Of a stretch of DNA of 64,000 nucleotides, positions 12,781 to 53,800 are shown one piece after another (the stretch's first letter is position 1; each line of letters starts with the position of its first letter). The notes beneath the pieces were generated by a model that made no database searches, was not told the DNA's origin, and saw nothing but the letters and a program-made list of their open reading frames with translations. Made by a program: the position numbers and the translations under genes. The DNA comes from a virus, in the UHGV virus genome UHGV-1455077; one strand, given 5' to 3'.

Positions 12781-12840
12781 ATTTTTAACTCCTTATTTTA
12801 ACTTTTCTATTATATTATAAATTATTTTATAAATGCAATA

Positions 12841-13143
12841 TTAATGTAAAATACCTAAAATATCAGTTTCTCTTAAAATGGTTTTTTCTTCTCCATTTAA
12901 TTTGATAACTTGACCAGCAAATTTACCAAATAAAACTCTATCACCAACTTTAACAGTCATTGGCATTGTTTTACCTGTTTCTTCATTATATAAACCATTT
13001 CCACAAGCAATTACAACACCTGTTGATGGTTTTTCCTTGGCATTATCAGGAATAATAATACCTCGGTCAGATACTCCTTTTTCTTCATCTTTTTCAACAA
13101 CCACAAAATTAAATAATGGTTGAATTTCTAATTTATTTTCCAT
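12841..13143 (-). CDS. groES: co-chaperonin GroES
   Basis: 100 aa; GroES pattern ...IIIPDNAKEKPSTGVVIACGNG...; immediately upstream of groEL in operon order. Confidence 0.85.
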   Translation of the reverse strand: MENKLEIQPLFNFVVVEKDEEKGVSDRGIIIPDNAKEKPSTGVVIACGNGLYNEETGKTMPMTVKVGDRVLFGKFAGQVIKLNGEEKTILRETDILGILH

Positions 13144-13157
13144 AATATTTTCTCCAT

Positions 13158-13190
13158 AAAAAAATAAGCTAACTTGTTTGTTAGCTTATT
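13158..13190 (-). terminator. rho-independent terminator between 13228..13782 and groES
   Basis: ataagctaacttgtttgttagcttat followed by T-run on minus strand. Confidence 0.6.
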
Positions 13191-13227
13191 ATAACGGAGA
13201 ATGAAAATGATTGTCAAAAATAAAAAA

Positions 13228-13782
13228 TTATTTTTTTATTTCTTTACCCATAGTTGATAAATCAAAATCTTTTGAAGGGTCTTTCATAAAAGTTTGATTA
13301 AATAAATTTGTTTCATCTGTCATATTTTTATAATTAATTAAAACTTTTTCAAAATATGTAACCAATTCTTGTCTTGTTGGAAACTTTTTATATTTTTTAA
13401 AAAATCTTGATAATTTTGGTAAAATAAGTTCTTGTTGAAATGGTATATAAATATCGTTTGTTTGAACATCATTTCCGTCTGTTTCTAAATAGAACATAGG
13501 GATAACAAACTCATATCCTAATAAAATTTTCTTAAATCTTGAATTATCAATAGTTCCACGAGTACCAATGCCAAATGCAATTGTAATTCTTCCTGTTCCA
13601 AAAACTTCTTTAATTACTTCATTAATGAAATTTAGTTTTTTAAAAGAAATATCTTTTGAAAGTTGTTTATAATTTCTGTTAGCCTTAATCGCTGTTCTAA
13701 TTTTTAGTTTATTAAAAATTTTCGAACCATTTTGTTTTTTATTCCATACATTTTTAACTATAAGCATAATATTTTCTTTCAA
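13228..13782 (-). CDS. hypothetical protein
   Basis: ORF 184 aa. Confidence 0.45.
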   Translation of the reverse strand: MKENIMLIVKNVWNKKQNGSKIFNKLKIRTAIKANRNYKQLSKDISFKKLNFINEVIKEVFGTGRITIAFGIGTRGTIDNSRFKKILLGYEFVIPMFYLETDGNDVQTNDIYIPFQQELILPKLSRFFKKYKKFPTRQELVTYFEKVLINYKNMTDETNLFNQTFMKDPSKDFDLSTMGKEIKK

Positions 13783-13845
13783 AAAAAATTAGCACCATTG
13801 CTGATGCTAATTTATTATTATATTTTTTAGTTGTCAAGAACTTTT

Positions 13846-15657
13846 TTAGTTCCATTGTAAATGCCAATAGAATGTTGTTCCTGTACTATCATTTGTAACT
13901 CTGGCAATTGAAAACTTTTTAGTTGATTCAAAATAATTCATTACTTGTTGCATTTCATCTTGTAATACATCATTTTCAATTAATTGTTTCCAAACCTGAT
14001 AATATTTTTTAGACATTGTTGGAGCTTCCATTACATAATTAACTTCAGGAACTTCTGTATATGTACCCCCATTTATTAATTTTGTTTCTAAAATTTTATC
14101 ATTAACAATTCTAACTGTTGCATTTGCATCGCCATCATTAAAGACAACACTTGTTGGATACATATAACCATCACCATAATTATCCATAACAATATATTTA
14201 ATTGTCCATTCTAAATCTGTATCTACTGGTATACGACCTAATAAATAATCATTTAAATTCCATACTTTATTAACAAGTGTCCAATGACCTGCAATTTTAA
14301 CATAAGTTGTATATGCTTCTAATTCTCCAGAATATGCTACAACATCGTGGTCTTCACCCCAATCATCATAAAGTTTAATTTGGTCAAATCTATATTCATT
14401 TTCTGTTTCAACCCAAGACCCATTAATTTTAATTCTATAACGACCTTCATCCCAAATGAATATATCTAAATTTTCACCAAATACATCTGGTGGTAAATTA
14501 TCCCAATCATATTCAACTACAATTTCTTGCCAGATACGATGGCAACATTTATACACTTTATGAGGTATACGATTTATAATATTTCCATCTTCATCATATA
14601 CTAATTCATTGTAATAGCCAACATCATAATCTAAACCATCTTCTGCGGTTGGTTTTCTATCTCCAAAATTCCAAATATTATGTGATAAATTCCATCCACA
14701 ATTTGTTTTTACATAATTTTTTCCAAATACATTATAACAAACTGTTCCTTCAACTCCAAAATTAAATGGTAATTTAAAAGTTTTATAATCATATATTGTT
14801 GAAACTTCAACCCAACCGTCAGATGTTTTTACATATATTTTATCTTGCTCTTTTGTATAAGTATCACTAATCATACCAAATGCTTCTGGTGGTAAAGAAT
14901 TTATATCATAAATTGTTCCAATAGGAAACCAATCAGTTTCACCTGGATATATACTATTACCATTTAAATCTTTAACTTGTTGTTCATTATCTCTTGTAAT
15001 TTGTAAATCTGAAATTAAACCATAATCTGAATCTATATCTAACCAAACAGAATCTCCTGGTTTTATTGTTTCATCATTCCAATATTTCATATTTTTATAA
15101 ACTAATTTAGCCGTATCAAAAATAGTTGTATATTCTCCACGATTAACAATTTCTAAATTAATAATATCTCCGTTATCATTAATTTCTGAAACTCTAAATT
15201 CTAATGGAATAGAATTATTATCATCTTTAACTTGTAAAACTTCTCCAACTCTAAAATAGTTTTTTGGATATATTTTACCAGCAGAATCACCTGCATTTGC
15301 AAAATTTTCAAAAATATTAGTTTCAGAATTACCCCCATCAATAATTTCTTCAAATAATTCAGTTTCAGAATTACCACCATCTACATATTTAATTAATGGT
15401 GAATTATTTAAATCTTCATTTTCATAATCTTTATGAATAGTAACTTTTGATAATTCCATTATACAATGAGATTTTGCTTCTTTAATTGGGTCTGCAAATT
15501 CACGAGCATCTGTCATTACTGTATTATATACATCACATTCAAATTGATTTTCGTCAACCGCTTGCATAATATATTCTTCAATATCATTAATCTCTTTTAA
15601 AATACGAGATTTATTTCGGGCATATTGTTTAGCTTCAGTTGCATTATAAAAATCCAT
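13846..15657 (-). CDS. hypothetical large Trp/Tyr-rich protein (possible virion protein)
   Basis: 603 aa; late-type motif AATAAATAAT 34 nt upstream. Confidence 0.45.
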   Translation of the reverse strand: MDFYNATEAKQYARNKSRILKEINDIEEYIMQAVDENQFECDVYNTVMTDAREFADPIKEAKSHCIMELSKVTIHKDYENEDLNNSPLIKYVDGGNSETELFEEIIDGGNSETNIFENFANAGDSAGKIYPKNYFRVGEVLQVKDDNNSIPLEFRVSEINDNGDIINLEIVNRGEYTTIFDTAKLVYKNMKYWNDETIKPGDSVWLDIDSDYGLISDLQITRDNEQQVKDLNGNSIYPGETDWFPIGTIYDINSLPPEAFGMISDTYTKEQDKIYVKTSDGWVEVSTIYDYKTFKLPFNFGVEGTVCYNVFGKNYVKTNCGWNLSHNIWNFGDRKPTAEDGLDYDVGYYNELVYDEDGNIINRIPHKVYKCCHRIWQEIVVEYDWDNLPPDVFGENLDIFIWDEGRYRIKINGSWVETENEYRFDQIKLYDDWGEDHDVVAYSGELEAYTTYVKIAGHWTLVNKVWNLNDYLLGRIPVDTDLEWTIKYIVMDNYGDGYMYPTSVVFNDGDANATVRIVNDKILETKLINGGTYTEVPEVNYVMEAPTMSKKYYQVWKQLIENDVLQDEMQQVMNYFESTKKFSIARVTNDSTGTTFYWHLQWN

Positions 15658-25951: not shown

Positions 25952-28486
25952 ATGAAATTAGAACAAATTATTACAGAGAATTTTCAAACTGTTTCTATTA
26001 ATGGTATTCTTTATTCATTAAATACTGATGAAAAAGCAATTTATGATAAAATTAAAAAAGAAGAAAATAAAAAATTATTTAAAAAAGATTTAGATGAATT
26101 TAGTCAAAGAATTGCTTCTGGATTAGTTACTAAAGGTATTTTACAACGTAGAAAAAATCCACAACACGAAATTTATTTTACAACTCGTGGACGTAGAAAA
26201 AATGCTGTTTTCAATAGACCATTGGAAGAAGTTGCTCCACCAGATATTGCAAGTGAAAAATGGATTAATAAAAATAAAGAAAAATTTAAAGAAAAATATG
26301 GAAGTAATTATAAAAAATATCTTTATGGTAAAGCTTGGAATATGTATAATGGAAAAGGTTTATCAGAAAGTTATAATGTTTTACTTGAAGGCATTACTGA
26401 ATTACAAAAATATTTTCCAAAAATTCCTTTAAAAAGAATTCAGGAATTAGTCGCTCTTGACCCAACATATAAGGGTGGTAATGAATTGGGTACATATGGT
26501 AAATGGATTTTAAAATTAGTTAATAATAATTTAAAAAATGAAGAAAATATTAAACAATTTGAAGAACTTAAAAAGAAATATCCAGATGGAATTAATCCAA
26601 AATCAGGTCAACCATTTATGCAACCAAAATTATTACCAGCTATTAAAGATGAAGACTTATATAAAATTACTGATTCATTAAAGCAATATAATATTAATAA
26701 AAAAGAAATTGGTAAGCCAATTGATTCTTTTCAAACATTACAAGATTTGGATAAAGAATTAAGCACTATTAAACAATCTGGAATACCAACAAATGAATTA
26801 GCATTAAAACGTTACAATATTGCTAAAAAAGGCGTTGAAAAAGGATTTAAAATAGTATACGAAGATGCAGATTGGTTAGTTGGTATTCCAACAACTAAAG
26901 AATCATCTTGTTTATTTGGTGATGATACATCTTGGTGTACAACTTCACCAGGTCAAAGTTATTATGAACATTATACAAAAGATGGGCCTTTATATATTAA
27001 TTTAAATAAAAATACAGGTCAACTATATCAATTCCATTTTGAAACAGATTCTTTTATGGATGAACACGATAATGAAGTTAATATTTTGAAATTATCTCGT
27101 AAATTTTCAAACGATTTAGTTAAATTTTATGATAATGTTGTTAAAAATGGAATTAACAATAATAAAACTAAAGATAAATTTATTCAATATCGTTATTTAT
27201 TTAATGATGATGATTTTGAAAATAATGATTTAGAAGATTATAAAGAAACACTCAAAAGTCGCCCATATTCTATTCAGTATATTCGTAACCCAACACAAGA
27301 ACTTATTGATATAGCAATCCAAGTATCTCCTTCAGTTATTAAATATATTGAACATCCAACACAAGAACAAATAGATTTATATATTAAAGAAAATCCAAGA
27401 GAAGCCATACATTTTATGGATACATTTTCGGATGAAAAATTATTAGAAATTATAAAAGAAAGAAATGATTTATTTAAATATTTTTATAATAAAGATGTTT
27501 CTCGTTTTACACCTGATTTATTTAATAAAGCATTAGATGTTTTAGATTTAACAAAAGATGATGATATTTTAAATACTAATTTTTCAGAAAAAGATGTATT
27601 TACAATTGTTAATAAATTTTTTAATATTAAAAATACAGACTATTATTCTAAAGAAAATTTAAAACTTTGTGTTAGATTATCAAAAATTGATATTAACAAT
27701 GTGCCAGAAGATATGAGATATAAATTATTAGTTATATATCCAAAACTTTTTGAAAACCTTAATGAAATTAGAGAAATTGATATGCAAGCACTCGTAGATA
27801 CTGCTAAAAATCAATATAATATTGGCGATACATCTGATTTAGAAATTAATTCAAATATTAAAACTATTTCAAAAAAATGTATTAATTTATTATTTAAATA
27901 TGTAAAAATAATAATACAAAAAGGTTTTAGTGTTTATATATCATCATTTTATGAATTTTTTAGTGTTGAAGATGCTATAAAATTTATAAAAATATTACCA
28001 GGTAATTTAACAAATATTGTATATAGCTTTGTTGAAGATACTGATAAATTTATTTCATTAATTAATACTTTATTTACATCTGAATTTGATTTTATAAAAT
28101 CTAATTATGTTAACAATGGATTGCTAAATAGATTAAGAAACTTAATTTTAAATGATATTCTTCCTGTTTATAATCGTTTAGATGAAGATGCCAAAAATAA
28201 TATTTTAGAGGTATTTATTGATAATATGGTATCAAAAGAACATAAATATTCAAGAGATTATAAATTATTAAAGAGATTTAATATTGACATACCTTATAAA
28301 TTACAAAAGAAAATAGCCGTTTTATCACCTGAAAGCGTTGTTGGAATTAAAAATTTAGATATTAGACTTCAAAAAGCATTGATTGAAAAAAATCCATTTA
28401 ATATTAAATTTATAAATAATCCAGATGCCGAAATTATTAAAATGGCATATGAAAAAGACCCTGATACAAAAAATTATATTAGATAG
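25952..28486 (+). CDS. large hypothetical protein with DUF4116-like tandem repeats
   Basis: 844 aa; repeats YIRNPTQELIDIAIQVSPSVIKYIEHPTQEQIDLYIKENP and C-terminal NPDAEIIKMAYEKDPDTKNYI; central DTSWCTTSPGQ block. Confidence 0.5.
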   Translation: MKLEQIITENFQTVSINGILYSLNTDEKAIYDKIKKEENKKLFKKDLDEFSQRIASGLVTKGILQRRKNPQHEIYFTTRGRRKNAVFNRPLEEVAPPDIASEKWINKNKEKFKEKYGSNYKKYLYGKAWNMYNGKGLSESYNVLLEGITELQKYFPKIPLKRIQELVALDPTYKGGNELGTYGKWILKLVNNNLKNEENIKQFEELKKKYPDGINPKSGQPFMQPKLLPAIKDEDLYKITDSLKQYNINKKEIGKPIDSFQTLQDLDKELSTIKQSGIPTNELALKRYNIAKKGVEKGFKIVYEDADWLVGIPTTKESSCLFGDDTSWCTTSPGQSYYEHYTKDGPLYINLNKNTGQLYQFHFETDSFMDEHDNEVNILKLSRKFSNDLVKFYDNVVKNGINNNKTKDKFIQYRYLFNDDDFENNDLEDYKETLKSRPYSIQYIRNPTQELIDIAIQVSPSVIKYIEHPTQEQIDLYIKENPREAIHFMDTFSDEKLLEIIKERNDLFKYFYNKDVSRFTPDLFNKALDVLDLTKDDDILNTNFSEKDVFTIVNKFFNIKNTDYYSKENLKLCVRLSKIDINNVPEDMRYKLLVIYPKLFENLNEIREIDMQALVDTAKNQYNIGDTSDLEINSNIKTISKKCINLLFKYVKIIIQKGFSVYISSFYEFFSVEDAIKFIKILPGNLTNIVYSFVEDTDKFISLINTLFTSEFDFIKSNYVNNGLLNRLRNLILNDILPVYNRLDEDAKNNILEVFIDNMVSKEHKYSRDYKLLKRFNIDIPYKLQKKIAVLSPESVVGIKNLDIRLQKALIEKNPFNIKFINNPDAEIIKMAYEKDPDTKNYIR

Positions 28487-29598: not shown

Positions 29599-30032
29599 CT
29601 GAAATTAAACAAAAGATTTTAACTGATGATAATGTTGCATCAGCGTTTGAATATATGCTATCAAAAATGATTTTTGAAAATCCTGTAAAACCATTACAAT
29701 TCATATATAAGAAATGTAAAATTGCTACGGGAAAAAATAATTTATATTCAATATATGATGCTAAGACAGGCGTTAAATTATATAATAAAATTTATTTTCA
29801 AGAAGTTGCCAAATATGTAGTCGATAATCTTAATTGTTATGGAAAAATTTCTCATATATTATTTTTAGAAAATGAGCTTATTAGATATAAAGAAAAAATA
29901 GATTTTTTTAAAAAATATTATATGCAGAAAAAAACAGATATTTTAGGAATTAAATTATCTGCAATGTATGATTCATATTTTCAAATTAAAAATAGTTTAT
30001 TAAATGTTCTTAAAGAGAATATTGGATATTAA
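29586..30032 (+). CDS. hypothetical protein
   Basis: 148 aa; start codon inside hairpin. Confidence 0.35.
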   Translation: MMDFSEIKQKILTDDNVASAFEYMLSKMIFENPVKPLQFIYKKCKIATGKNNLYSIYDAKTGVKLYNKIYFQEVAKYVVDNLNCYGKISHILFLENELIRYKEKIDFFKKYYMQKKTDILGIKLSAMYDSYFQIKNSLLNVLKENIGY

Positions 30033-30489
30033 TTATTTCGTATTCATTATCATTATATTCAAAATAATCATTCAATGATAATCCAATCATTTCTTTAACA
30101 AATGGTGCTTGAATAGATATTAACCCATTGCTTATATCAGATTCATACGTACTAACAATAGTATATCTTTTAATTTCTTCAGTTTCAGTATTTATAAATG
30201 TAACTGTTGCTCCAAATCCAATTTTATAATTTCCTTTTTCATTATAACAAATCATTGTTTTTTCAAATATTCGAGAATCTCTTAAAATATCTTGTAAATC
30301 TGATATTTTTTTTTCAATTCTATTTTGAAAATCTATGGCTTGTAAATATTCAGGCGGAAATTCATCTGAAACACCAATTGGACGTGTTTCCTCAAGCATT
30401 TGATAGGCTTTGGGTCTTTCATTATGAACTAGCTCATTTAGTTCATTACTTAATTTATCATATCCTTTTCTTGTTATAATTATTGTCAT
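30010..30489 (-). CDS. transcription elongation factor GreA/GreB-like protein
   Basis: 159 aa; C-terminal FKBP-like domain KIGFGATVTFINTETEEIKRYTIVS...LISIQAPFVKEMIGL parallels GreA VIFGATVTV...LISVNSPIARGLIG; N-terminal coiled coil with acidic tip SDEFPPEY. Confidence 0.65.
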   Translation of the reverse strand: MTIIITRKGYDKLSNELNELVHNERPKAYQMLEETRPIGVSDEFPPEYLQAIDFQNRIEKKISDLQDILRDSRIFEKTMICYNEKGNYKIGFGATVTFINTETEEIKRYTIVSTYESDISNGLISIQAPFVKEMIGLSLNDYFEYNDNEYEIINIQYSL

Positions 30490-30887: not shown

Positions 30888-31205
30888 TTATATAATTTTT
30901 AATGATGAGCCAATCCATTCATCTAACTCATCTAAATCCATAGCAATTGAACTATCTAACAATTCTGCTTTTATATGAGATGTAATAAGCATAACAACAG
31001 GAACAGCATTATAACCTAATTGTGTTATAATATCAATATTAGAACATTCGTAAAAATCTAAATCATATTTCTTTGAATTTTCAATTTCTTCAAGATTTTC
31101 TTGAGTCATTTTACAAGGAATACAATTTGGCTGTCCAAATTTTACAAGTGATGGTCTAATACCTGTAAGAGCATTTAGTTCTTCCATCGTTTTAATTTCT
31201 TTCAT
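30888..31205 (-). CDS. thioredoxin-like protein
   Basis: 105 aa; active site FGQPNCIPCKM (WCGPCKM-like) and cis-Pro region VPVVML. Confidence 0.6.
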   Translation of the reverse strand: MKEIKTMEELNALTGIRPSLVKFGQPNCIPCKMTQENLEEIENSKKYDLDFYECSNIDIITQLGYNAVPVVMLITSHIKAELLDSSIAMDLDELDEWIGSSLKII

Positions 31206-31711
31206 TAGTATTCTCCATATTTAATTTTATTATAGCTTGATGAAATTAAATTAACCATCATTGGTATATCCTTAATACCATTATGTGTTTTTTTCATCAT
31301 TGGTAAATTTGAAATATAGCATAAAGTGCTTATATCTTTAAATTTATACATTGTTGGCCCTTTAAAATTTAATGTATCATAGGCATTTAAAAGTATTGGA
31401 GCATCAAATGAAGTATTACACCATACATTTGTATTCCATATATCATCTCCATTGATTTCATTTAATACATTAAATAATGGTTGGGAATTTGAAAAAAATG
31501 TTTCTTGAACATCTTTATCTAAAGTTTCAATCCAATTAATTGTTTCAGCATCAATATCAAACAGTTGAATATCAATTAAATTTGCATCAACATTTAAATG
31601 TTTTTCAAGGAATATCTCTCCATTTTCAATATCAAACATTGCGTACGATATTCTTGCAATCGCCGCATTTCTTTTTAATGAAAATGTTTCTAATGTTAAT
31701 ACAGTTTCCAT
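31205..31711 (-). CDS. DEDDh 3-prime-5-prime exonuclease-like protein with atypical motif I
   Basis: 168 aa; motif II NTSFDAPILL and motif III HNGIKD present; motif I reads VLTLETFS (first Asp not conserved). Confidence 0.4.
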   Translation of the reverse strand: METVLTLETFSLKRNAAIARISYAMFDIENGEIFLEKHLNVDANLIDIQLFDIDAETINWIETLDKDVQETFFSNSQPLFNVLNEINGDDIWNTNVWCNTSFDAPILLNAYDTLNFKGPTMYKFKDISTLCYISNLPMMKKTHNGIKDIPMMVNLISSSYNKIKYGEY

Positions 31712-32331: not shown

Positions 32332-33516
32332 ATGGGTACAAACAATTATCATCTTTATCAAAAAGAAAGAAGTCAAAATTATAATTATATTGACCGTGTA
32401 GTAAAAAATTATTTGGAACAAGGTGGTGGACTTTTTCACATTTATCCAATGAAATCAATTATTGATAATAATGGTGGTGAACACGAAATTGGTACTTCTG
32501 GATTTTATGTAACTGATGCAGTTTTTAATGAAAACTCTAAACGTAAATACTCCCGTGAAACCTTTGATTTATGGGGTGTTACAATGATGAATACACCAAC
32601 ATTTTCTTTTAATTTTGATGGTTTATCATTATTAGATGGCGACCAAAAAGAGATTTCATTTCACTATAATTCAATGGTTGCTCAACTTGGTCGAAAAATT
32701 TTAGTTGGAGATGTTATTGAATGGTCTTGGTTACGTGATTTAGATATTTTAGGTTCTGATGAAGCCGCTAATAAATTTTATCAAGTAACTTCATCTGAAC
32801 GAGATGAAAAAGGATGGGCGGCAAACTACAAATATCATTTATGGAAAGTTAAATGTAAGCCTATTACTAATTCTCCTGAATTTGAAGATTTATTTAATTA
32901 TGATAAAGAAAATGATTTTTATGAAGATGTTAATTCAGGTAATGGTGGTGGTGGTTTAGACCCAAATAATACCGCAGAATCAAGCGAATTAGATATAAAT
33001 GACCAAGTTTTAGAAGAAGCAGAATTAAAAGGGCCTTCATTCAGATTACACGATGAACATCATATTTATTTAGATGAAAACAATAGATTATACGATACTC
33101 ACGGTCGTTTTATTCCACAAGGTATAGATGGTATTCCAAATCAATTAAATTGCATTGATGTACCATTTGGAGAATTTTTTCCTGATTCATCAACTGTTAA
33201 AGATGGTGATTATTATTTAAGAGTAGATATGAATCCACCTAGATTATTTAAAAGATTTACAAATGAACAATCAAAAGAAGGCGGTTGGAGAATGGTTGAA
33301 TATGATAATAGAGAAAAATGGACAGGTGTTCCTATGGTATTAAGAAGTGTTATTAACAATGACACAACTGTTAAATTTGAAGATGGAGAAGTACAACCTG
33401 CTCGTCAAAATATTAAAGACCTTGTTAAAGCAAGAGTTAAAAAAGAACACGGCAAACCAAGACCTTGGAAAGATATTACAATTATTGAGCCAGATGCAAC
33501 TCCAACAGGTATTTAA
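32332..33516 (+). CDS. putative virion structural protein
   Basis: 394 aa; late motif upstream, strong terminator downstream; no specific family recognised. Confidence 0.5.
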   Translation: MGTNNYHLYQKERSQNYNYIDRVVKNYLEQGGGLFHIYPMKSIIDNNGGEHEIGTSGFYVTDAVFNENSKRKYSRETFDLWGVTMMNTPTFSFNFDGLSLLDGDQKEISFHYNSMVAQLGRKILVGDVIEWSWLRDLDILGSDEAANKFYQVTSSERDEKGWAANYKYHLWKVKCKPITNSPEFEDLFNYDKENDFYEDVNSGNGGGGLDPNNTAESSELDINDQVLEEAELKGPSFRLHDEHHIYLDENNRLYDTHGRFIPQGIDGIPNQLNCIDVPFGEFFPDSSTVKDGDYYLRVDMNPPRLFKRFTNEQSKEGGWRMVEYDNREKWTGVPMVLRSVINNDTTVKFEDGEVQPARQNIKDLVKARVKKEHGKPRPWKDITIIEPDATPTGI

Positions 33517-33546
33517 AAAAATGGTACGCATTGCGTACCATTTTTT
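33514..33546. terminator. bidirectional rho-independent terminator
   Basis: aaaaaaatggtacgcattgcgtaccatttttt perfect 10-bp stem. Confidence 0.8.
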
Positions 33547-34117
33547 AGAATTCATCTAATTGTGTTTCCCAATACTCTTTCGAAAACCAATCATTATCAT
33601 CGTATTCTTTATTTTTACGATTTTTCTTTGCATTTTCTTCCAATTGTCTAATACTTGGAATATATGGTTTATGTATTAAATGCATATGTGATTCCTCAAG
33701 TGTTTTACCACCTTTTTTACTATTACATTCTCTACAAGCTGTAACAATATTATCCCAACAAGTTTTACCGCCTTTACAGCGAGGATGTACGTGGTCAAAT
33801 GTTAAATCATCTGCTTTAAATCTTTTACCACAATATTGGCATACATAATCATCACGAAGATAAACATTTCTTCGAGAAAATTTTGGAGTATGATTAACAT
33901 TTACATACTTTTTTAAAACAACTATTTTAGGCAGTTTCATTTCTTTATTTTGAATAATAATAGAATCATCATATTCTTTAACAACTGATAATCTTCCCTT
34001 TAATAAGGATTTAATAACTTTTTTCATACTATTCAAAGATAATGGGTATCTACTTAAAGGCTGATAATCTCCATTAAGAATTAAAACTGGTCTATTCATT
34101 ATACTTTTATTTGTCAT
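33545..34117 (-). CDS. HNH endonuclease
   Basis: 190 aa; YVCQYCGKRF...FDHVHPRCKGGKTCWDNIVTACRECNSKKG HNH/zinc-finger core; overlaps upstream AAA gene by 11 nt. Confidence 0.75.
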   Translation of the reverse strand: MTNKSIMNRPVLILNGDYQPLSRYPLSLNSMKKVIKSLLKGRLSVVKEYDDSIIIQNKEMKLPKIVVLKKYVNVNHTPKFSRRNVYLRDDYVCQYCGKRFKADDLTFDHVHPRCKGGKTCWDNIVTACRECNSKKGGKTLEESHMHLIHKPYIPSIRQLEENAKKNRKNKEYDDNDWFSKEYWETQLDEF

Positions 34118-35294
34118 CGTTAATTACTTTTCTAAATTGGTCAATTGTTAATATATTCCATTTGACTTGTCTAATTAATTCTTGTAATGTTGCAGGATTA
34201 ATAAACTCCTTTTTAAATAAATTGTCAAGTCCTAATTTATCAAAAATCATTTTATTTGCCATTTCATTATTTAAATCGGTTAATTCTATTTTATAATCCA
34301 TACGACCATCACGTAAAAAGGCTTCATCTAATTGTTCAATATGATTTGTTGTGAAGAAACAAATTATTCCTTCTGGAGTATATAAACCATCTAATACATT
34401 TAATATATCTGATAATGTTATTTTATTATCTCTTGATGGATTAATAATATCACCCGTCATTTCATTATCAACTCTATTATTAACAGCCGTATCAGCACAG
34501 TCAATATCTTCAAATACAAATATTTTTCTATCAGGTGATGAAATTTGCCATATTAAATCATCAATATCTCTAATAGTTTTTAAACTAATCATTTTAATTT
34601 GAAAATTTAATTCACTTGCTAATGCAAATATCAAAGAACTTTTTCCTGTACCAGGTACACCATATAATAAATAATTTCTTTTATATAAAATGTTATTATT
34701 AATATAATCATTTTTTGATTTTAAGAAATGTTTTATATCATTTAAAATCTTATTTCCAATGTTATCATTTGTATATACACTTGTTAAAGGTCTTTTTGTT
34801 CTTTTAATTTCATTATATCCTTGAATAACAGTTATCTTATTATCATATGCTTCAACTGTATCCTTTAAAGATTCTTCTAATTTTTTAATAAATTTCTTTT
34901 TATTTGCAAAATATACCCTTAAAAATATTTTTAAAGTTACACCATTTGCATCAGATTCCCACGATTTTGAAAAATATACCAATTTTTTAAACATCCATAG
35001 CCAAGTTACTCCATAACCTTCACCAATTTCTTGTTTATTATTAATTTCATATGTATTTTGAAATAAATGTGTTTGATTTTTAATTAATAATTCTAAATTT
35101 TTATTTGGAACACTTTCATAATTGTATATTTTAGCATTATATGAAATTGAAAATGAAATTAATGATATAAGTTTTGTATAAACCCAACCAAAAATTACTT
35201 TACTATGCATAACAAACATTGCAACAATACCGCCACTATACATAGTTGCTAATGCAGGATTTGATTGTACAATTTCTTTAAAAAACTCTAACAT
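34107..35294 (-). CDS. BCS1-like AAA+ ATPase with N-terminal transmembrane segment
   Basis: 395 aa; N-terminal hydrophobic PALATMYSGGIVAMFVMHS; Walker A LLYGVPGTGKSS, Walker B IFVFEDIDCA, second region FFTTNHIEQLDEAFLRDGRMD closely parallels mitochondrial BCS1 AAA module. Confidence 0.75.
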   Translation of the reverse strand: MLEFFKEIVQSNPALATMYSGGIVAMFVMHSKVIFGWVYTKLISLISFSISYNAKIYNYESVPNKNLELLIKNQTHLFQNTYEINNKQEIGEGYGVTWLWMFKKLVYFSKSWESDANGVTLKIFLRVYFANKKKFIKKLEESLKDTVEAYDNKITVIQGYNEIKRTKRPLTSVYTNDNIGNKILNDIKHFLKSKNDYINNNILYKRNYLLYGVPGTGKSSLIFALASELNFQIKMISLKTIRDIDDLIWQISSPDRKIFVFEDIDCADTAVNNRVDNEMTGDIINPSRDNKITLSDILNVLDGLYTPEGIICFFTTNHIEQLDEAFLRDGRMDYKIELTDLNNEMANKMIFDKLGLDNLFKKEFINPATLQELIRQVKWNILTIDQFRKVINDDK

Positions 35295-35322
35295 TATTTT
35301 TCCTTTTATTTAATTTTACATA

Positions 35323-35350
35323 ATAATATCATTAAATTTAAAAATGTCAA
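35323..35350 (-). promoter_or_regulatory. sigma70-like promoter (TTGACA-N16-TATTAT) for AAA-HNH operon
   Basis: minus-strand ttgacatttttaaatttaatgatattat, about 20 nt leader then AAAAGGA RBS and ATG 35294. Confidence 0.5.
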
Positions 35351-35362
35351 GAACATATAATA

Positions 35363-35396
35363 AAAAAAGAGGTTGAATTTCTTCAACCTCTTTTTT
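35363..35396 (-). terminator. rho-independent terminator after capsid gene
   Basis: aaaaaaagaggttgaatttcttcaacctctttttt. Confidence 0.8.
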
Positions 35397-35414
35397 AATA
35401 CTCTTTTCAGCTAA

Positions 35415-39665: not shown

Positions 39666-39755
39666 TTAATTAACTCCTTAATTGTTAAAAAATATTTTGT
39701 TCTATTTGTATTTATAAAAACTTATTAAGTTTTGATGAAAATTAGTATTTTTCTC

Positions 39756-39786
39756 TTGACAAATTAAAAAAATAATATACTATATA
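39756..39786 (+). promoter_or_regulatory. sigma70-like promoter for plus-strand moron genes
   Basis: ttgacaaattaaaaaaataatatactatata. Confidence 0.4.
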
Positions 39787-40316: not shown

Positions 40317-40344
40317 TTGACAATTAAAAAATATATGTTATATT
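40317..40344 (+). promoter_or_regulatory. sigma70-like promoter TTGACA-N16-TATATT (extended ATATGTTATATT)
   Basis: ttgacaattaaaaaatatatgttatatt 21 nt upstream of RBS AAGGAG and ATG 40366. Confidence 0.5.
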
Positions 40345-40983: not shown

Positions 40984-42774
40984 TTATACTGATGGAGTTG
41001 AACCTGCACCTGCGGTTGGAGCAATACCCATACCACCTGCATCTCCTGATGGCATTCCACCACCCATTTCACCATTACCCATACTACTCATATCACCACC
41101 TGCTGGCATACCACCTAATGATTCCATACCAGCATTCATATCTGCCGCCATATCATTCAAGTAATCCATTGAAATATCTTCAATACCAACGGTACGTAAA
41201 CCAGGAATTTGATTTTTATCTTCAGTTGGTAATTCAACATCTTCATTTTTAAATCTATTTTGATTTTCAATAATCAATAAACGCTGATTTTCATTAAATT
41301 CTTCTTCTGTAAGTTTCAAATAATATTTTAATGCGAATTGTTTTGAGATATATTGACTTCCAGATGCACTAAGAAATGCATTTAATCTATTTGTTTTAAT
41401 TTCTTCTTCTGAAATTTCAGTAATATTAGATGGTTCATTAAAAGTTAAATTAAAACTATCTTCATTAACATTAATTCCTCTATGTTGCAAAAATCTTTTA
41501 TATTCTTTATCTAATTCAGGAATTAAAATATCTTGAATACGACAACAAAATTTAAAAAATCTTAATTCTTGAACATATGCATTTGCAACATTTGTTGGTA
41601 AAGTTCGTTGTCCGTCAGTTGGCCCGTAAGGTACCCAAGATTGTGGAACATTCATACCACGAATTAATAAATTCTCCCAAAAAACCATATCATTAATTTC
41701 ACCAAGTGCTTGACCACCAGCTAATTTTTCAATTTTTGGCTGAACACCATCTGAATCAACTGGTAAGAAATAATCTTCATTCATTGGAATTGAATTATAT
41801 GCAACATCTATTGTATTAAATACACCATCTGTATCTTTAGCAGGCATACGTCTTTGAGATAATTCATTTTTGGTTTTTTCAAGTATTTGTTTACGCTTAT
41901 AGCGAGGTATTCCCCCAACTGGAATATAAAAAACTAATTTTTCTGTTGCATTTTTAATTCTATATAATAAAATGCAATCTTGTAATAACATTTTTTGGAT
42001 ATAAATTTTATAAATTTTTTCTAAAATTGATAATCCAAATGGAAAAAGTAATACATTATCGACATTTAATGATAAATGAATTACATTATCAGCACTAACT
42101 GGTAAAGTTGTATTATCATCAGTTGGATTTGGAGAGGTTGATGCATTTGCAGTATTGCTTGCATTAACAACACCAGGAAAATTAGAATTAATTGTATTTA
42201 ATAAATTTCTTGTAGTAACATCTGATTGTGCAGTTGTTGCAACTTTTAAAGGAACATTTAATTCAACATTTTTAATAACATAATGTGTTGGATTTTTTAA
42301 ATCATCTACAACAACGCCTAACACATCATATATATTAACTTTTTGTAATTCATATGTATCAGGGTCACGAACAAAAAATACATCTCCATATTTTAATGCA
42401 TCTCGAATTGTTGGATACATTCTTTTTTTCCATTCATTTGTTTTAACCCAATCATCTAATTCTTTTTCAATTGTTAGTGTTTGGGAATCAGGCAACTTTT
42501 CATTTGCAGTATATTCAATTTTAAATGGCTTATCTTTATCAGCTTGGATAACATAATCTACAATCGTATCTAATGACCAAGAAATAATAGGGTCTTGTTC
42601 CATACCATCATAAATAGTATATCTTTCACAACGATTATTTGGGCCTTGATAAACTGCTGGTAAATAATTTTTATATCTATCATAAATTGACGTAGCATTA
42701 TCTCCAGAATTACCTCTAACTCCAAGCTTTGCTTTTGGTAATGTTACCGCTTTTAAAAATTTTTTATAAGACAT
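40984..42774 (-). CDS. portal protein, T4 gp20-like, with Gly/Met-rich C-terminal tail
   Basis: 596 aa; size, position upstream of prohead core/protease genes and overall pattern; C-terminus GGMPAGGDMSSMGNGEMGGGMPSGDAGGMG; late motif AATAAATAT 26 nt upstream. Confidence 0.8.
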   Translation of the reverse strand: MSYKKFLKAVTLPKAKLGVRGNSGDNATSIYDRYKNYLPAVYQGPNNRCERYTIYDGMEQDPIISWSLDTIVDYVIQADKDKPFKIEYTANEKLPDSQTLTIEKELDDWVKTNEWKKRMYPTIRDALKYGDVFFVRDPDTYELQKVNIYDVLGVVVDDLKNPTHYVIKNVELNVPLKVATTAQSDVTTRNLLNTINSNFPGVVNASNTANASTSPNPTDDNTTLPVSADNVIHLSLNVDNVLLFPFGLSILEKIYKIYIQKMLLQDCILLYRIKNATEKLVFYIPVGGIPRYKRKQILEKTKNELSQRRMPAKDTDGVFNTIDVAYNSIPMNEDYFLPVDSDGVQPKIEKLAGGQALGEINDMVFWENLLIRGMNVPQSWVPYGPTDGQRTLPTNVANAYVQELRFFKFCCRIQDILIPELDKEYKRFLQHRGINVNEDSFNLTFNEPSNITEISEEEIKTNRLNAFLSASGSQYISKQFALKYYLKLTEEEFNENQRLLIIENQNRFKNEDVELPTEDKNQIPGLRTVGIEDISMDYLNDMAADMNAGMESLGGMPAGGDMSSMGNGEMGGGMPSGDAGGMGIAPTAGAGSTPSV

Positions 42775-47784: not shown

Positions 47785-47811
47785 AAAAAAGGAGTTTTAA
47801 ACTCCTTTTTT
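47785..47811 (-). terminator. rho-independent terminator after giant gene
   Basis: aaaaaaggagttttaaactcctttttt. Confidence 0.75.
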
Positions 47812-50800
47812 ATTTTTCTTCAAAATATGATAACATTTTTTGAATTACAATTGCACTTTCAGCTTCTAAATAATCATATTTTGTTTGATTTCCTATGAAA
47901 ATTGAATCATCACGAGAATCATAATCACCATTCCAGAAATTTAATGTTACATTAAAATCTTCTGCAACAGTAACTTTACTACCAACAGGAACAGTTGCTT
48001 TTGTAAATGGTAATTCATTTGTTAAATATTCAAGAGTATCATTACTACCTGTTTTTAATCCTAATACAACTGCGGATGTTGAAACTCCTGAAACTAATGA
48101 AAATGTTATTGGATATTGATTATATCCTTCTCCAGATATATCTGGTGTATAAATTTTAACATTATTAGCAAAACTGTTTTTCATATATGAAGCATCTAAT
48201 ACACCGTTTTTAGTTATATTAATTCCCATATAATCATAACCATTCCATAAATCTTCGGTAATAATAAAATCAGTTGTTCTTGGTGTTTCATCTCTATACC
48301 AATTTGGAACATTATTTTTTAATTCTGCATCATCCATATATGTATATAAACTATCAGAAACATTAATTGTTCCATCTTGTAAACCAACAGTATGGAAGAT
48401 TGGAGATGTTCCTTGCATTCCTTCATATTGTTTAAGTATCCACTTGCCATCAGAATATATTTTTACAACATCGCCTGTTTCAAAATGATATTCTTCAAAA
48501 TGTTCTTGTAAATCAATCTCTGATTCAAAAGTTGCTCTTGGTGTTATCATTTTAATTGAATCATCAGCATATAAATCTTTATATGTCCAATATTTAGAAA
48601 CATCATAAGTTTGATATTTTAATAAAGTATAATCATTTAAATTATCCATTCTCCATAAAGTCCAAATATTTTCATATACTTCATCAGTTTTTACTAAAAT
48701 TGTTTTTCCAATTAAAGCTGTGTCTTCACTTGAAATCATTTCTAAATGAGTATCAAATGAATAATCATATTCTGGATATGGTTCTTTACTTAAAAATATA
48801 TTATTAAATTCACTTGAACCAACATCAATATCTGATAATACATCACGAGTATCAAATATATGATTTAATATATCAACGAAATTTTGTCTTGCTTTTGATA
48901 TATTTTCAAACATTGTTTGTCGAGGTCTAATGTAAATACCAATTTTATTTCTTTCTAATAATTCTGGGTCAGGAACAACTTGACCTAAAGAATCATAGCC
49001 AACTAAACTTGCTTTCATTTTATCCCATAATGAATCTGGAATTTCGGCATCAGTATTTTCTTTAACTAAAACCCATTCTTCGTGTTCAGTTACATCATTA
49101 TCGCCTAAAAAATTCAATTGAATTACAAAATCTCTACCTGCATTTATTGTATCAAAATTACCAATAATCATTGAACTATATTGTGTTTCGCCATCATACG
49201 CATATACAGGAGCATACCAAATTACACCTTCATCTTGTGGAGAATTGATAATTTGCGAAATATATAATGCACTTGTATGTCTGAATTGAACTGAAGGTAT
49301 TTCAGATGGATTTTTTACCCAATAGTAATAATATACTTCATTTTTTTCAGTTGAATTATTATATACTTCTTTAGTTACATAAGAAATATCTTTTGGTTCA
49401 GTTGTTGATTTAGTCCATTCCATTATAGCAATTTCTGAACCAGGCATTTGTTTACCCCAATTATTTCTTCTATAAGTAATTTCTCCTTGTGAATAGTCTA
49501 AATATTTAACTTTTGAAATATCCCACCATAATTGTCCAACTTTATTATCACCCCAAGTTGAATAATTATTATAATCAGCAGGGTCTTGTGCAATTATATA
49601 ATTAATTTCTTTTAATAAATTATTTGGAAAAACTCCTTGAATTGGGTCATAAGGCTGAATAGTTGCCATTGTTTCATTATTATCATCATTAACCATAAAG
49701 CAAGATTTAACTTCTTTAATATTAACTTTACGATTTTGTAAACGATATAATGAATATGTTTTATCAACTGTTGGTTTATAATCTATATCAGTTTCTCCAA
49801 CATCATAAACTTCTCCAGATTGTTCATTAATATATTTAAATACTGACCAAGCCATTTTATCAATAATATTTTGTGAATCATTAATATGATAAGATGGGTC
49901 ATAAATTTTCTTTAAGTTATCTACATTATTAATAACATCTCTTAATACATATATTAAATCGCCAATTTCTAAATGAGTTGTATCAAAACTATAAACATCA
50001 GCAATTTTATCAACAACCATAGAAATCCAATTGTTTTCTTCATCAACTTTTTTACGTATATCCCAACCTTGTTTAGTATTGGCAAATGAAATCCAAACTT
50101 TTTCACCAACTTTCATATTTTTTAACATTTCATCAAAAGTTGTTTCATTATCAATGATATAATTTGTTTCACCAATTTCTGCAAATCCAGCAGTTGGATA
50201 AAATTTAAAATTATTTGTAAAGTTAAATTTATTTAATTCTTTACTTTCTTTTTTCTTTAACCAATTTGAATTATTCCAAGTAATATCAATAATAGAATTA
50301 TTTAATTTAACATTATCAGATGTTGTAAATGAAACAATTTGAGGGTCTTGCGTGATTAAATCAGGTTGTACTTTTAATTCAATAATTGAACTATTTGAAG
50401 TATAACCAAATTCTCCAACTTTAAATGCCCAGTTTTCAAACAATTCAATTTCATTATTTTCTGCATCCATAATATAAGTTGAACGATTTAATTTATCAAA
50501 TGAACGTTTTGTCCCTTTTTCTTTAAGTAATCCTTTATAGAAATCAAAGATATTTCTATCATCAATTAATAATCTTTCCATAGATGGTAATTTTTGAAAA
50601 CCAATAGTTCTCTTTGCATAATCACCAAAAATACCTTGTGAGCGAACATCATCAGTATTATAGAAATATTTAAAATCATTAGCTAATTTATCATAGTTTG
50701 GATATGCTCCATTTTTATCAATTAAATAACCAGGAGCAAAATATGTTCCGTTCCAGCCATCAACTTTAATACCTAAAAGTTTTAAACGCTGTGCTTTAAT

Positions 50801-53800
50801 ACAAAGTAATGGGTCATATATAATGTCACCATAAATTGTTTGATTATCAAATAATATAATATGTTCATTTTCAATTTCTTTAATTTTCAAACAAGTAATA
50901 GCTTTATTTGTTGAGAATATATAAGTATCACCTTCTTTACGATAAACATCTAAATCTTCATTGAATATTGGTAAAGAAGCAGTATTTAATACTGACCAAT
51001 AACCATTAACATATTGTCCAACTTTATCAATAAATGCATCGTGGAAAATACCAATACCATCAGCACCAGGATTTAACATAATAATTGAATCTGTTTCAAT
51101 ATTTGTTGTCGTCCATAATAAGAAATCTCTAGCTTTATTTCTGAAATTTACCAATTCTCCATTGGTATCTAACATATTAAAATACCATCCTTCAACATCT
51201 TCAAGATATTTTCCATAACCATTAATAATATTATAAACATCTTGAATAGAAGAATAAACAGTTTTATAATTTATTTTTTCTAATTTATCAGTCCATTCAT
51301 TATAATAAATAACATTTCTTCCAGCAATATTAACAGTTGATTTTTTACCATTATATTGAGGAATTTTTACCATAAAATATGGCTTTTCATAATCATAACC
51401 ATCTATCATATAACCAGATTCAACTTTTTGAATTACAATTGCTGAATATGAATATTGTTTATCGGTAATAGTTTTATATAAATCTAATTCATAATTTTGT
51501 GAAGGAATAACTCCAAAATTATCTGATAAAATTTTAATACTATCATATTTGTAATAGCCTGCACATTTATAAGATAATTTCATTGTAATTTTTCTTATTG
51601 AATCAGCAATATAATTTGTAATATCTACATTTTCGTGTAATAAGAAATCTGAAATCCATTGTTGAATACCAATTTTTTGAATATAAGAATTATCAACTAA
51701 TTCATTATGCATAACAACATCAGATGGAGAAGGTCTTTTACCTAAATCATCATAAATAATTTGCTCATATGAAGTATCTTTAAAAATAACTTTAATATTT
51801 TGAGTATCCCAATTTCTTTCTACCCATTCTGTTGGTCTCATCATATATAAAATTGATTGAATTGAATATCTATATTCAGATGTATACATCCACGCAAATT
51901 CCCAACGACCAATATCACCAACTTTCCAAGATTGTCTTGCATAATATGGAATAGGAGCATTTAAAACAATACCAATATCAACTGGATTTAATAATTCACC
52001 ATTTTCATTAACTGGTAAATATTTTTCAATTAATTGTGGACGTTTTAAAAATTCATATTCTCCTTTTGATTCTCCATCAGCTACGTAACCATTTTCAATA
52101 TCTTGCCACATAGGTAAATTTGCAGAAGTATATGGTGCAGTACCATAATGTTCTTCCCACCATTCAGGCATTGAACCAAAACCTAACATTTCCCAAGGAT
52201 GAGTATGAGGTCTATAAGTATCATAGTAATACATATAAATTGATTTATATGAACCATATAATTGTTCGCCATCAGCATCTACACAAGTTGAATAATTCCA
52301 AGAAAATGGGTCATTTTGGTCAAAACCATCATTAATAGTATAATCAACACCTTTATCTTGACACCATTTTTCAAAAATAGGAGTTAAAAATTCTTTATAT
52401 TCTTGTTGATTATAACTTGTTTCTCTAAATTTACCAGGAATATATTCTAACTTATTGTATAATGGTAAACTATTTTTAAATTTATCTAAGATTGAATTAT
52501 AAATAGCTGTTTCAATTCCTAATAATGCTTCATCACGATAATCATTAAATAACATTTGATATGAACCATCGTGGCAAAGTAAAACTTTTGGTTTATTAGC
52601 ATTTTCTTCAAATACAATAATCTGTGGCTTATAACAAGAATCTAATCCTAAATATGCAGGAGTAGCTGGAATATAACATTCTCCATATTCATTTGCTACA
52701 CCATTATTATAAAATGAATTTAATCCTTCTTTACCAATATTAATTTTACTTAATGCAGTTTGAATAATTTTTTTAACATCTGTTTGTTGAGTTATATGAG
52801 AAACTGAACCTGTTGGACTAATAACATCAACAGTTTCATATTCATCATATTCTCCACTATTACTCATTGAAGTAATAATATTTTTAAATTTAGTTTTAAA
52901 TTTTGTATATTCATTAGTTATATATGTTAATACTGTTCTTATATTTGAAAATTCACGAGAATTTAGCAACATTGTTTTAAGGGCAGGACTTTCGTGTTGT
53001 AAAATTTCTGTACCTAATGATAAATCTTTTTTTGTATTATTATAATTATTATTTCCTGATGAATTACCACTAAATGCACTTTGATTTTCAATGATGCTTC
53101 TTAATTGGTCAAAACATTCATTATAATTAATTTGAGAAATATCTTCATTCATTGCATTTGAAGTAATAGTTAATGGTAAATCATAAAAATATCCATCAGC
53201 AATTGTATCAGTTAACTTTTTAACTAATAATTTAATATATAAGCTATCATCAGTATTTAAAATACTTGTTTCAGCAATCATTAATTTTTTATCTTTAATG
53301 ATATAATCAATACCGTCATTTAACAAAACACCATTTAGATATACAAATGATGATTTTTTATTTGTAACTTCGTCTGGCTGATATGCTAATTGAAAAACAG
53401 TATATTTCACATCATCAATTGTTTCATATACTTTATTATCTGAAACTGTTAACTCGGTTGTAATATATTGAGTAGTTATATCTTTAGAAATATACCAGTT
53501 ATTTAAATATACATCTTGTCCATTTAATTTAAAAAACTTAAATCCATCATACTCTTTTAATATTGTATAATCATAATAAGTAAATGTTTGTGTTCTAATT
53601 ATATTATCAAAAATGTAATTACCATAGCCATCAGTAACAATAGCTTTATTTAAATCTTCATCTATTGTTGCTCCTGCTTCATCAGTTGTAACATAATCAA
53701 ATAATTTACTTCCCTTAAATGATGATTGATTGTAATATAATTGATTATCTAAAGTGTTTTTTTCATCATCATAAAGTTGAAATAATGGTGATTGATTAAC

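Follow-up and report, generated by a model that had tools for sequence, protein, structure and literature searches.

Organisation of the locus

The stretch of viral DNA analysed here, called the window below, is 64,000 nucleotides of UHGV virus genome UHGV-1455077. Our subject is a unit of two genes on its minus strand, which follows directly after the gene for the major capsid protein (MCP). The first gene (34107..35294) encodes a BCS1-like AAA+ ATPase of 395 residues, referred to as AAA, and the second (33545..34117) encodes an HNH nuclease of 190 residues. The two reading frames overlap by 11 nt.

The capsid gene, which ends at 35415 on the minus strand, is of the gp23 type (Pfam Gp23, 6e-83). 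It belongs to a late head operon on the minus strand that also encodes a 347-residue protein, a prohead protease (Peptidase_S77) and a 419-residue scaffold-like protein. This operon is closed by a bidirectional intrinsic terminator at 35363..35396, with a 15-bp stem and T-runs on both sides (-19.7 kcal/mol, z = -6.0). A hairpin is present at the equivalent place in two of the related loci described below, L016 and L004, with altered stem and loop sequences.

Between this terminator and AAA lies a sigma70-type promoter (35323..35350, minus strand) of the form TTGACA-N16-TATTAT, with TTGACA at 35350-35345, TATTAT at 35328-35323 and the TG of an extended -10 element at 35331-35330. A ribosome binding site, AAGGA (35301..35305, minus strand), can be read directly from the sequence 6 nt 5' of the start codon. 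At the other end of the unit is a second bidirectional terminator (33517..33545), a hairpin of 13 bp with an A-run on one side and a T-run on the other (-19.1 kcal/mol, z = -4.3), which is common to the HNH gene and the convergent gene for a 394-residue virion protein (32332-33516, phrog_11591). The original prediction for this DNA, made from the letters alone, had described the capsid terminator, the promoter, the 395-residue reading frame and the overlap with the HNH gene, and all of these are found where it placed them.

The promoter is the best sigma70-like site within 12 kb, with 11/12 matches plus the TG. The pattern TTGACA-N15-18-TATNAT occurs twice in the window against 1.17 expected, and by count is no rarer than chance. 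The looser pattern TTGACA-N15-18-TAnnnT has eight sites, six of which lie within the non-coding 6.8% of the window, and all six are 22-45 nt upstream of a start codon on the same strand. As six of the eight are non-coding and correctly placed, the phage has, as judged from its sequence, a class of host-type promoters, most of which precede small genes and which are interspersed among the structural operons. Besides the AAA promoter this class comprises five intergenic sites (TTGACA-N16-18-TAnnnT; 1570-1597, 13188-13217, 13809-13837, 39756-39783 and 40317-40344), each lying 22-45 nt 5' of a same-strand reading frame of at most 184 residues.

The hexamers of the AAA promoter and their spacing of 16-17 nt are retained in L016, L004 and L009/L010, though the spacers and surroundings have diverged. 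In L009, where an insertion of two homing endonuclease genes follows the capsid gene, the promoter is still directly 5' of AAA. The retention of the hexamers in diverged relatives, and the location of the unit between two terminators, agree with the earlier proposal that it has its own sigma70-type promoter. This promoter was also said to differ from the late type of its neighbours, and it does: the head operon is preceded by a T4-type late promoter, TATAAATA (39709-39716), and the 394-residue virion gene by a one-mismatch version, TATAAAGA. Following the T4 paradigm, we infer that the AAA-HNH unit would be transcribed early.

It is worth adding that a scan with Rfam gave a sub-threshold match to the small RNA RmaA at 33507-33596 (31 bits, against a gathering score of 57) and nothing else. 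The match overlaps the hairpin of the second terminator, which accounts for it, and is most simply explained as an artefact. The window contains no tRNAs.

The ATPase and the nuclease

The ATPase consists of N-terminal hydrophobic helices (residues ~13-46), a β-rich middle domain (47-165), an AAA module (166-340) and a lid (341-395). The module contains the motifs GVPGTGKS (at residue 212), FVFEDID (259), TTNHIEQLD (315) and RDGRMD (328). Pfam detects the generic AAA domain alone (1.9e-15). When the protein was compared with PDB sequences, Bcs1 was by far the best match (1.6e-30, 110 bits), the next AAA family (VAT/Cdc48) reaching at most 57 bits. A profile built from a family of 33 sequences gave the same result with better separation (Bcs1 1.2e-48; other families 1e-22 or weaker), with YjoB of Bacillus subtilis the next family after Bcs1. 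The profile alignment extends into the middle domain of Bcs1, positions 84-376 of the profile corresponding to residues 128-414 of the yeast protein. An AlphaFold2 model (pLDDT 83.5) was submitted to Foldseek, and the top 12 matches were all full-length Bcs1 chains (385-437 columns), followed by YjoB; the Bcs1 AAA domain 6u1y gave a TMt of 0.8.

The Walker B motif (FVFEDID, 259-265) has E262 and D263 invariant in the 33 homologs. The order 'ED' instead of 'DE' is a hallmark common to Bcs1 and YjoB (PMC9565160). Taking sequence and predicted fold together, the phage protein is a member of the BCS1/YjoB branch of the classical AAA+ ATPases. The original prediction of a BCS1-type module is thus upheld, and the alternative of a classic phage morphogenesis ATPase gives no better alignment.

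The resemblance to Bcs1/BCS1L (PDB 6SH3, 6UKO, 8T7U, 9GS2) covers the classical AAA module, with its 'ED' Walker B, TTNH sensor and R-x-G-R-x-D arginine motif, and, as predicted for the phage protein, the order of the parts: N-terminal hydrophobic helix, β-rich N-domain, AAA and lid. However, the phage ATPase is only 22-25% identical to these proteins over its full length, its N-domain is undetectable by sequence alone, and it is phage-encoded, with no Rieske or bc1 genes seen near the locus. Bcs1/BCS1L is a heptameric translocase of a folded client, the Rieske protein; the likeness of the phage ATPase to this machine is one of sequence and predicted fold. YjoB (PDB 7W42), a proposed substrate-specific chaperone, is the second-best match by both structure and profile; it has a Bcs1-like N-domain, as the predicted fold suggests for the phage protein, and an AAA module carrying an 'ED' Walker B. 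Unlike the phage protein, which has a conserved hydrophobic helix at its N-terminus, YjoB lacks any transmembrane or amphiphilic helix and occurs as a soluble hexamer in the cytoplasm (PMC9565160).

In the family alignment, this hydrophobic helix is 17 residues long and comes after N12, which is invariant, and P13, which most members conserve. The segment in front of it is acidic (net charge -1 in most members), and one to three K/R residues come after it. These flanks are consistent with an anchor in the N-out/C-in orientation.

It had been suggested that BCS1-type ATPases were not described in tailed phages. This is not so. Iyer et al. (2021) reported BCS1 orthologs in representatives of all three major groups of jumbo phages (PMC7824862). 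We found homologs by tblastn in 214 phage records, mostly of jumbo phages and some annotated 'mitochondrial chaperone BCS1'. The ATPase matches phrog_7485 (E 1.1e-58; residues 2-350 on profile positions 9-371 of 430), and its exact sequence is already public (100% identity) as UniProt A0A8S5T1E7, 'ATPase [Myoviridae sp. ctWb16]', in BFVD, which also lists many relatives from phages and giant viruses. The premise of novelty therefore fails, and the ATPase is, by its sequence, an additional member of a family already known to occur widely in jumbo phages and giant viruses. It shares family, size and architecture with the jumbo-phage orthologs (phrog_7485; for example gp468 of Salmonella phage Munch, 'mitochondrial chaperone', and 'BCS1' of Tenacibaculum phage pT24), and the capsid protein of the window phage is also nearest to the Munch/GAP32 group. 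However, the window ATPase is at most 32% identical to any annotated phage copy, and the jumbo-phage genes lie a long way from the capsid gene, surrounded by small hypothetical genes, with no HNH gene adjacent.

The HNH protein scores above the Pfam gathering thresholds of both HNH_5 (PF14279; 7e-17, 61.5 bits against 27.5) and HNH (PF01844; 1.4e-14, 54.4 bits against 21.4), and matches phrog_16726 (2e-36). The expected HNH endonuclease overlapping the ATPase gene is thus confirmed. It has a conserved N-terminal region (residues 1-80) followed by a Zn-stabilised HNH core (C93, C96, D108, H109, N123, C128, C131, N132), in which all of these residues are invariant in the family alignment except C131, which is more than 90% conserved. 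On the strength of these residues the nuclease is catalytically intact. The nearest structures are Gmet_0936 (4h9d, 3e-15) and then the HNH domains of IscB/Cas9 type, with which, as with phrog_16726, it shares the Zn-stabilised ββα-metal core and all the catalytic residues. It differs from the Gmet_0936, IscB and Cas9 types in that its N-terminal domain of about 80 residues is specific to its own family and has no fold match, and it is not RNA-guided. The family to which it belongs, of about 180 residues and with its own invariant N-terminal motif, occurs in some bacteria and in large phages that infect a wide range of hosts.

Variation of the interval after the capsid gene

A megablast search of the region against 50,697 phage records (INPHARED) gave no match, indicating that there is no close cultured relative, and related loci were therefore drawn from metagenomes. 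The MCP is about 53% identical to those of jumbo phages of the GAP32/Munch/7t3 type, and closer relatives are found in metagenomes only. The interval compared is that between the capsid gene and the conserved virion gene of 39x residues. Related loci were read with flanks of up to 10 kb, and the presence or absence of AAA and HNH refers to these flanks.

When the lineages are ordered by capsid identity, the arrangement promoter-AAA-HNH is found in the window and L015-17 (99%), in L004 (90%) and in L009/L010 (89%), where it is preceded by two phrog_3339 homing endonuclease genes. In L011/L012 (90%) the interval has genes of 526 and 303 residues, facing an inverted HNH gene with a 178-residue gene before it. 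A 701-residue ORFan faces an inverted HNH gene in L013 (85%), as do one homing endonuclease gene and genes of 549 and 324 residues in L078 (85%). L080 (78%) has three homing endonuclease genes or fragments, and neither HNH nor AAA. HNH is thus present in six of the seven lineages whose whole interval is readable, with identities of 66-88% that track the phage phylogeny.

Judged from these sequences, cargo genes and homing endonucleases collect in a variable hotspot just after the capsid gene, in accordance with the idea that this place is prone to insertion. It had been proposed to look in relatives for an uninterrupted junction between the capsid gene and the next gene, as an insertion scar. 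No empty junction was found: every relative examined has some cargo after the capsid gene.

The homing endonuclease genes just 3' of the capsid gene (phrog_3339/DUF7487 type) are at 1700-4706 in L009, 11289-12779 in L078, and 11290-14356 and 18362-19393 in L080. One of two scanned copies from L009 has a REase_MTES_1575-like domain, and the window itself has no such genes. In the sister lineages the AAA slot is filled at 6584-9075 in L011 (526 and 303 residues), 12831-15438 in L078 (549 and 324 residues) and 6638-8743 in L013 (the ORFan). The L011 pair is homologous to the L078 pair (34-36% identity), and the C-terminus of the 549-residue protein resembles the end of an 844-residue reading frame of the window (28334-28480). 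None of the slot genes in L011, L078 and L013 has a Pfam or PHROG match.

Elsewhere the two genes go separate ways. AAA homologs of 47-51% identity are found at other loci in phages of the group: in L005 among small early-type genes, where a DNA methyltransferase gene follows it, and in L007 within 3-5 kb of HSP20 and GroEL genes, in both cases without HNH. (The window has a GroEL-like chaperonin gene of its own, at 11146-12780 on the minus strand; phrog_5725, 5e-152.) In Munch, the AAA gene is 110 kb away from the capsid gene and has no HNH gene adjacent. Among 59 AAA-family loci, HNH or a capsid gene is within 10 kb in only three contigs, all of the closest relative. Across 47 AAA loci there is no neighbour or client gene conserved family-wide, only clade-specific synteny. 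One example is a separate phage clade (L044, 6128-10981; L035, 7442-10747), in which AAA lies in a conserved block beside genes for multisubunit RNA polymerase β subunits. Conversely, HNH homologs without an adjacent AAA are found in Rhizobium phage RHph_TM30 and Pseudomonas phage PA5oct. In annotated phages the AAA family occurs mainly in those of Pseudomonas, Erwinia, Klebsiella, Serratia and Salmonella, and the HNH family mainly in those of Synechococcus, Gordonia, Pseudomonas, Vibrio and Rhizobium, so that at genus level there is hardly any overlap.

Since HNH occurs without AAA in sister lineages, AAA occurs without HNH elsewhere, and the genus distributions differ, the pairing is, on this comparative evidence, an arrangement specific to the subclade and not a conserved or obligate two-gene system. 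The pair is conserved next to the gp23-type gene in the closest lineages (MCP 89-99% identical) but not in the wider group.

It is striking how sharply AAA stands out from its neighbours in divergence. Amino acid identity to L016 is 99% for the capsid protein, 93% for the virion protein, 92% for the protease, 90% for the scaffold and 88% for HNH, but 57% for AAA. In nucleotides (window 34350-35414, L016 9874-11000), identity is 90-99% as far as the capsid stop codon, falls precisely there to about 50-68%, and climbs back to about 80-87% near 34350, within the C-terminal part of the AAA gene. The middle, putatively substrate-binding domain of AAA has a non-synonymous divergence (dN) of 0.51 and a ratio to synonymous divergence (dN/dS) of about 0.76. 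For HNH, dN/dS is 0.12, indicating ordinary purifying selection. The dS of AAA is no higher than that of other non-structural genes, and with a proportion of synonymous differences (pS) of about 0.45 it is probably saturated in this AT-rich genome, so that allele replacement and rapid, possibly diversifying, evolution look the same. Pairwise AAA identities form a star-like matrix (47-63%) that disagrees with the capsid tree. This star-like, fast divergence is, in our view, the most interesting part of the finding. A foreign origin by composition was considered and rejected: the G+C content of AAA and HNH (21-28%) equals that of other non-structural genes in the window.

Possible roles of the unit

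On the basis of these observations, we hypothesise, with moderate confidence, that the unit is a moron-like, σ70-promoted accessory unit, in which a BCS1-family chaperone or translocase is co-transcribed with an HNH nuclease resident at the locus. What the analysis itself shows is how the genes are arranged with their promoter and terminators, the families to which they belong, and their distribution and synteny. The unit would comprise the terminator, host-type promoter, ribosome binding site, AAA, HNH and second terminator, set in a recombination-prone slot. By analogy with Bcs1 and YjoB, the ATPase may form a ring whose N-terminal domains enclose a chamber holding a folded client; it would be tethered to the inner membrane by its N-out/C-in helix, and would use ATP to remodel, insert or move the client at the membrane. 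It would act early or throughout infection, and not within the late head operon. HNH would be a long-term resident of the locus in this phage group, which in this subclade is simply co-transcribed with and translationally coupled to AAA, the two proteins presumably functioning independently and not as an obligate two-component system.

Several points weigh against this picture. Pfam BCS1_N matched 0/33 family members, and a profile of the N-domain only (residues 1-165) found no significant match in the PDB, so that here it is the predicted fold that carries the likeness to Bcs1. A further indication for this domain is that the profile alignment enters Bcs1 residues 128-218; against it, the TM-score rises by only a small amount over that of the AAA module alone. 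The N-domains of YjoB and Bcs1 themselves have a common fold without sequence identity (PMC9565160). Thus, of the profile and structural checks proposed earlier, the Pfam AAA domain and the Bcs1-like predicted fold came out as anticipated but BCS1_N did not. The hydropathy of the N-terminus is borderline (KD19 maximum 1.54; family median 1.56, range 0.83-2.11), and a few homologs reach only about 0.8-1.0. Membrane anchoring is therefore not certain; the predicted N-terminal transmembrane segment corresponds to a conserved hydrophobic helix but one of borderline hydropathy, and we regard the ATPase as probably membrane-associated. We know of no phage BCS1-like protein with an experimentally established function, and chaperone or translocase activity is assigned by analogy. 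In the comparison with L016, dN is higher for AAA (0.34; dN/dS 0.52) than for any other of the 12 neighbouring genes, which fits a role in an arms race better than a housekeeping chaperone. Finally, four lineages with AAAs that share only 53-63% identity retain the start/stop overlap of the two genes, which could point to a functional link and not just to co-transcription.

A rival proposal is that AAA and HNH form a joint conflict module for superinfection exclusion, anti-defence or defence, the ATPase recognising or delivering a target and the nuclease acting as effector. Translational coupling is conserved in the window, L016, L004 and L009/L010, the promoter is separate from the late genes, the location is a hypervariable hotspot, and AAA is the fastest-evolving protein nearby, above all in its putative substrate-binding domain. 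There is also a weak similarity of the ATPase to IetA/IteA, the AAA+ ATPases of the Ietat anti-phage system (IetA plus IetS), over the P-loop region. However, the PADLOC match to IetA (1.5e-9) is sub-threshold and limited to residues 166-238, the NCBIfam score for IteA is 35 bits against a cutoff of 510, BCS1 is a far better match, and the adjacent gene encodes an HNH protein and not an IetS protease; Ietat was therefore rejected. Both libraries gave generic, sub-threshold AAA matches only, and no defence-system model was recognised. Moreover, the pairing is confined to one subclade, the two families are distributed largely independently, and HNH evolves under ordinary purifying selection. We thus consider a joint conflict module rather unlikely. 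Of the mobile or conflict module originally proposed, the separate promoter and the variable slot stand, but not a general pairing or a known defence function.

A different explanation, to which we give somewhat more weight while still thinking it doubtful, is that HNH is a free-standing homing endonuclease (intronless homing) and that promoter and AAA are passengers carried by endonuclease-stimulated recombination. As with the free-standing homing endonucleases of T4-like phages, this is a stand-alone endonuclease gene between conserved structural genes, here two virion genes, at a locus that collects other homing endonucleases (two in L009, others in L078 and L080). It occurs in either orientation and is missing from L080, and identity changes abruptly at the capsid stop codon and again within AAA. 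Homing endonucleases, however, typically show a sporadic and decaying pattern, whereas this HNH is present in nearly all the readable lineages, follows the phage phylogeny, is under purifying selection, and belongs to a conserved family with a motif of its own that is also bacterial.

According to a published hypothesis, phage BCS1 orthologs bind folded proteins and translocate them while heads are being assembled close to the membrane (Iyer et al., 2021; PMC7824862), in which case the position of AAA beside the capsid gene would reflect a role in prohead assembly. AAA does adjoin the protease, scaffold and MCP genes in this subclade, and the GroEL-like chaperonin in the window suggests that the phage invests in folding and assembly factors. 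Yet a strong terminator parts AAA from the late head operon, and its promoter is of the host type and not of the TATAAATA type. The AAA of relatives has small early-type genes around it, or a DNA methyltransferase gene or RNA polymerase β-subunit genes as neighbours; sister lineages with capsid proteins 85-90% identical have other genes in its place; and it diverges fast where head proteins evolve slowly. A head-morphogenesis function is accordingly improbable in our estimation.

If AAA and HNH were a working pair, one further arrangement can be imagined, for which we see very little likelihood. The membrane-anchored ring might export or insert the folded, zinc-bound HNH protein across the host inner membrane, with the N-domain engaged in an arms race. 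A folded protein would thereby be exported independently of Tat, by analogy with the movement of the folded Rieske protein by Bcs1, and the nuclease could attack the incoming DNA of competing phages or act at the envelope.

Returning to the accessory unit with a BCS1-family chaperone or translocase, the finding refines existing knowledge and does not add a new kind of system. The locus also provides an example of a hotspot of recombination, with many homing endonucleases, immediately 3' of a T4-type capsid gene. The unit is compact, self-promoted and wholly clonable, and comes with natural variants in which AAA is present, replaced or relocated, which makes it a convenient route to the client protein. 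It would allow a test of whether viruses that infect bacteria rely on a Bcs1-style machine for the handling of folded proteins at the membrane.

Some other genes in the window may be mentioned. The portal gene is at 40984-42774, and a virion structural protein of 2454 residues is encoded at 47810-55174 on the minus strand (phrog_10938, 1126 bits). Several other large reading frames in the window (603-928 residues) have no PHROG match. At 30010-30489 (minus strand) there is a homolog of the transcript-cleavage factors GreA/GreB, an unusual cargo for a phage. Pfam recognises its counterparts in the relatives, and it is conserved, at 46-74% identity, in all the related loci that extend far enough past the virion gene. 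The block of small genes adjoining the virion gene includes, at 30888-31711 (minus strand), genes for a 105-residue CxxC (CIPC) protein of thioredoxin-like appearance and for a 168-residue protein, whose homologs in relatives match Pfam Rv2179c-like.

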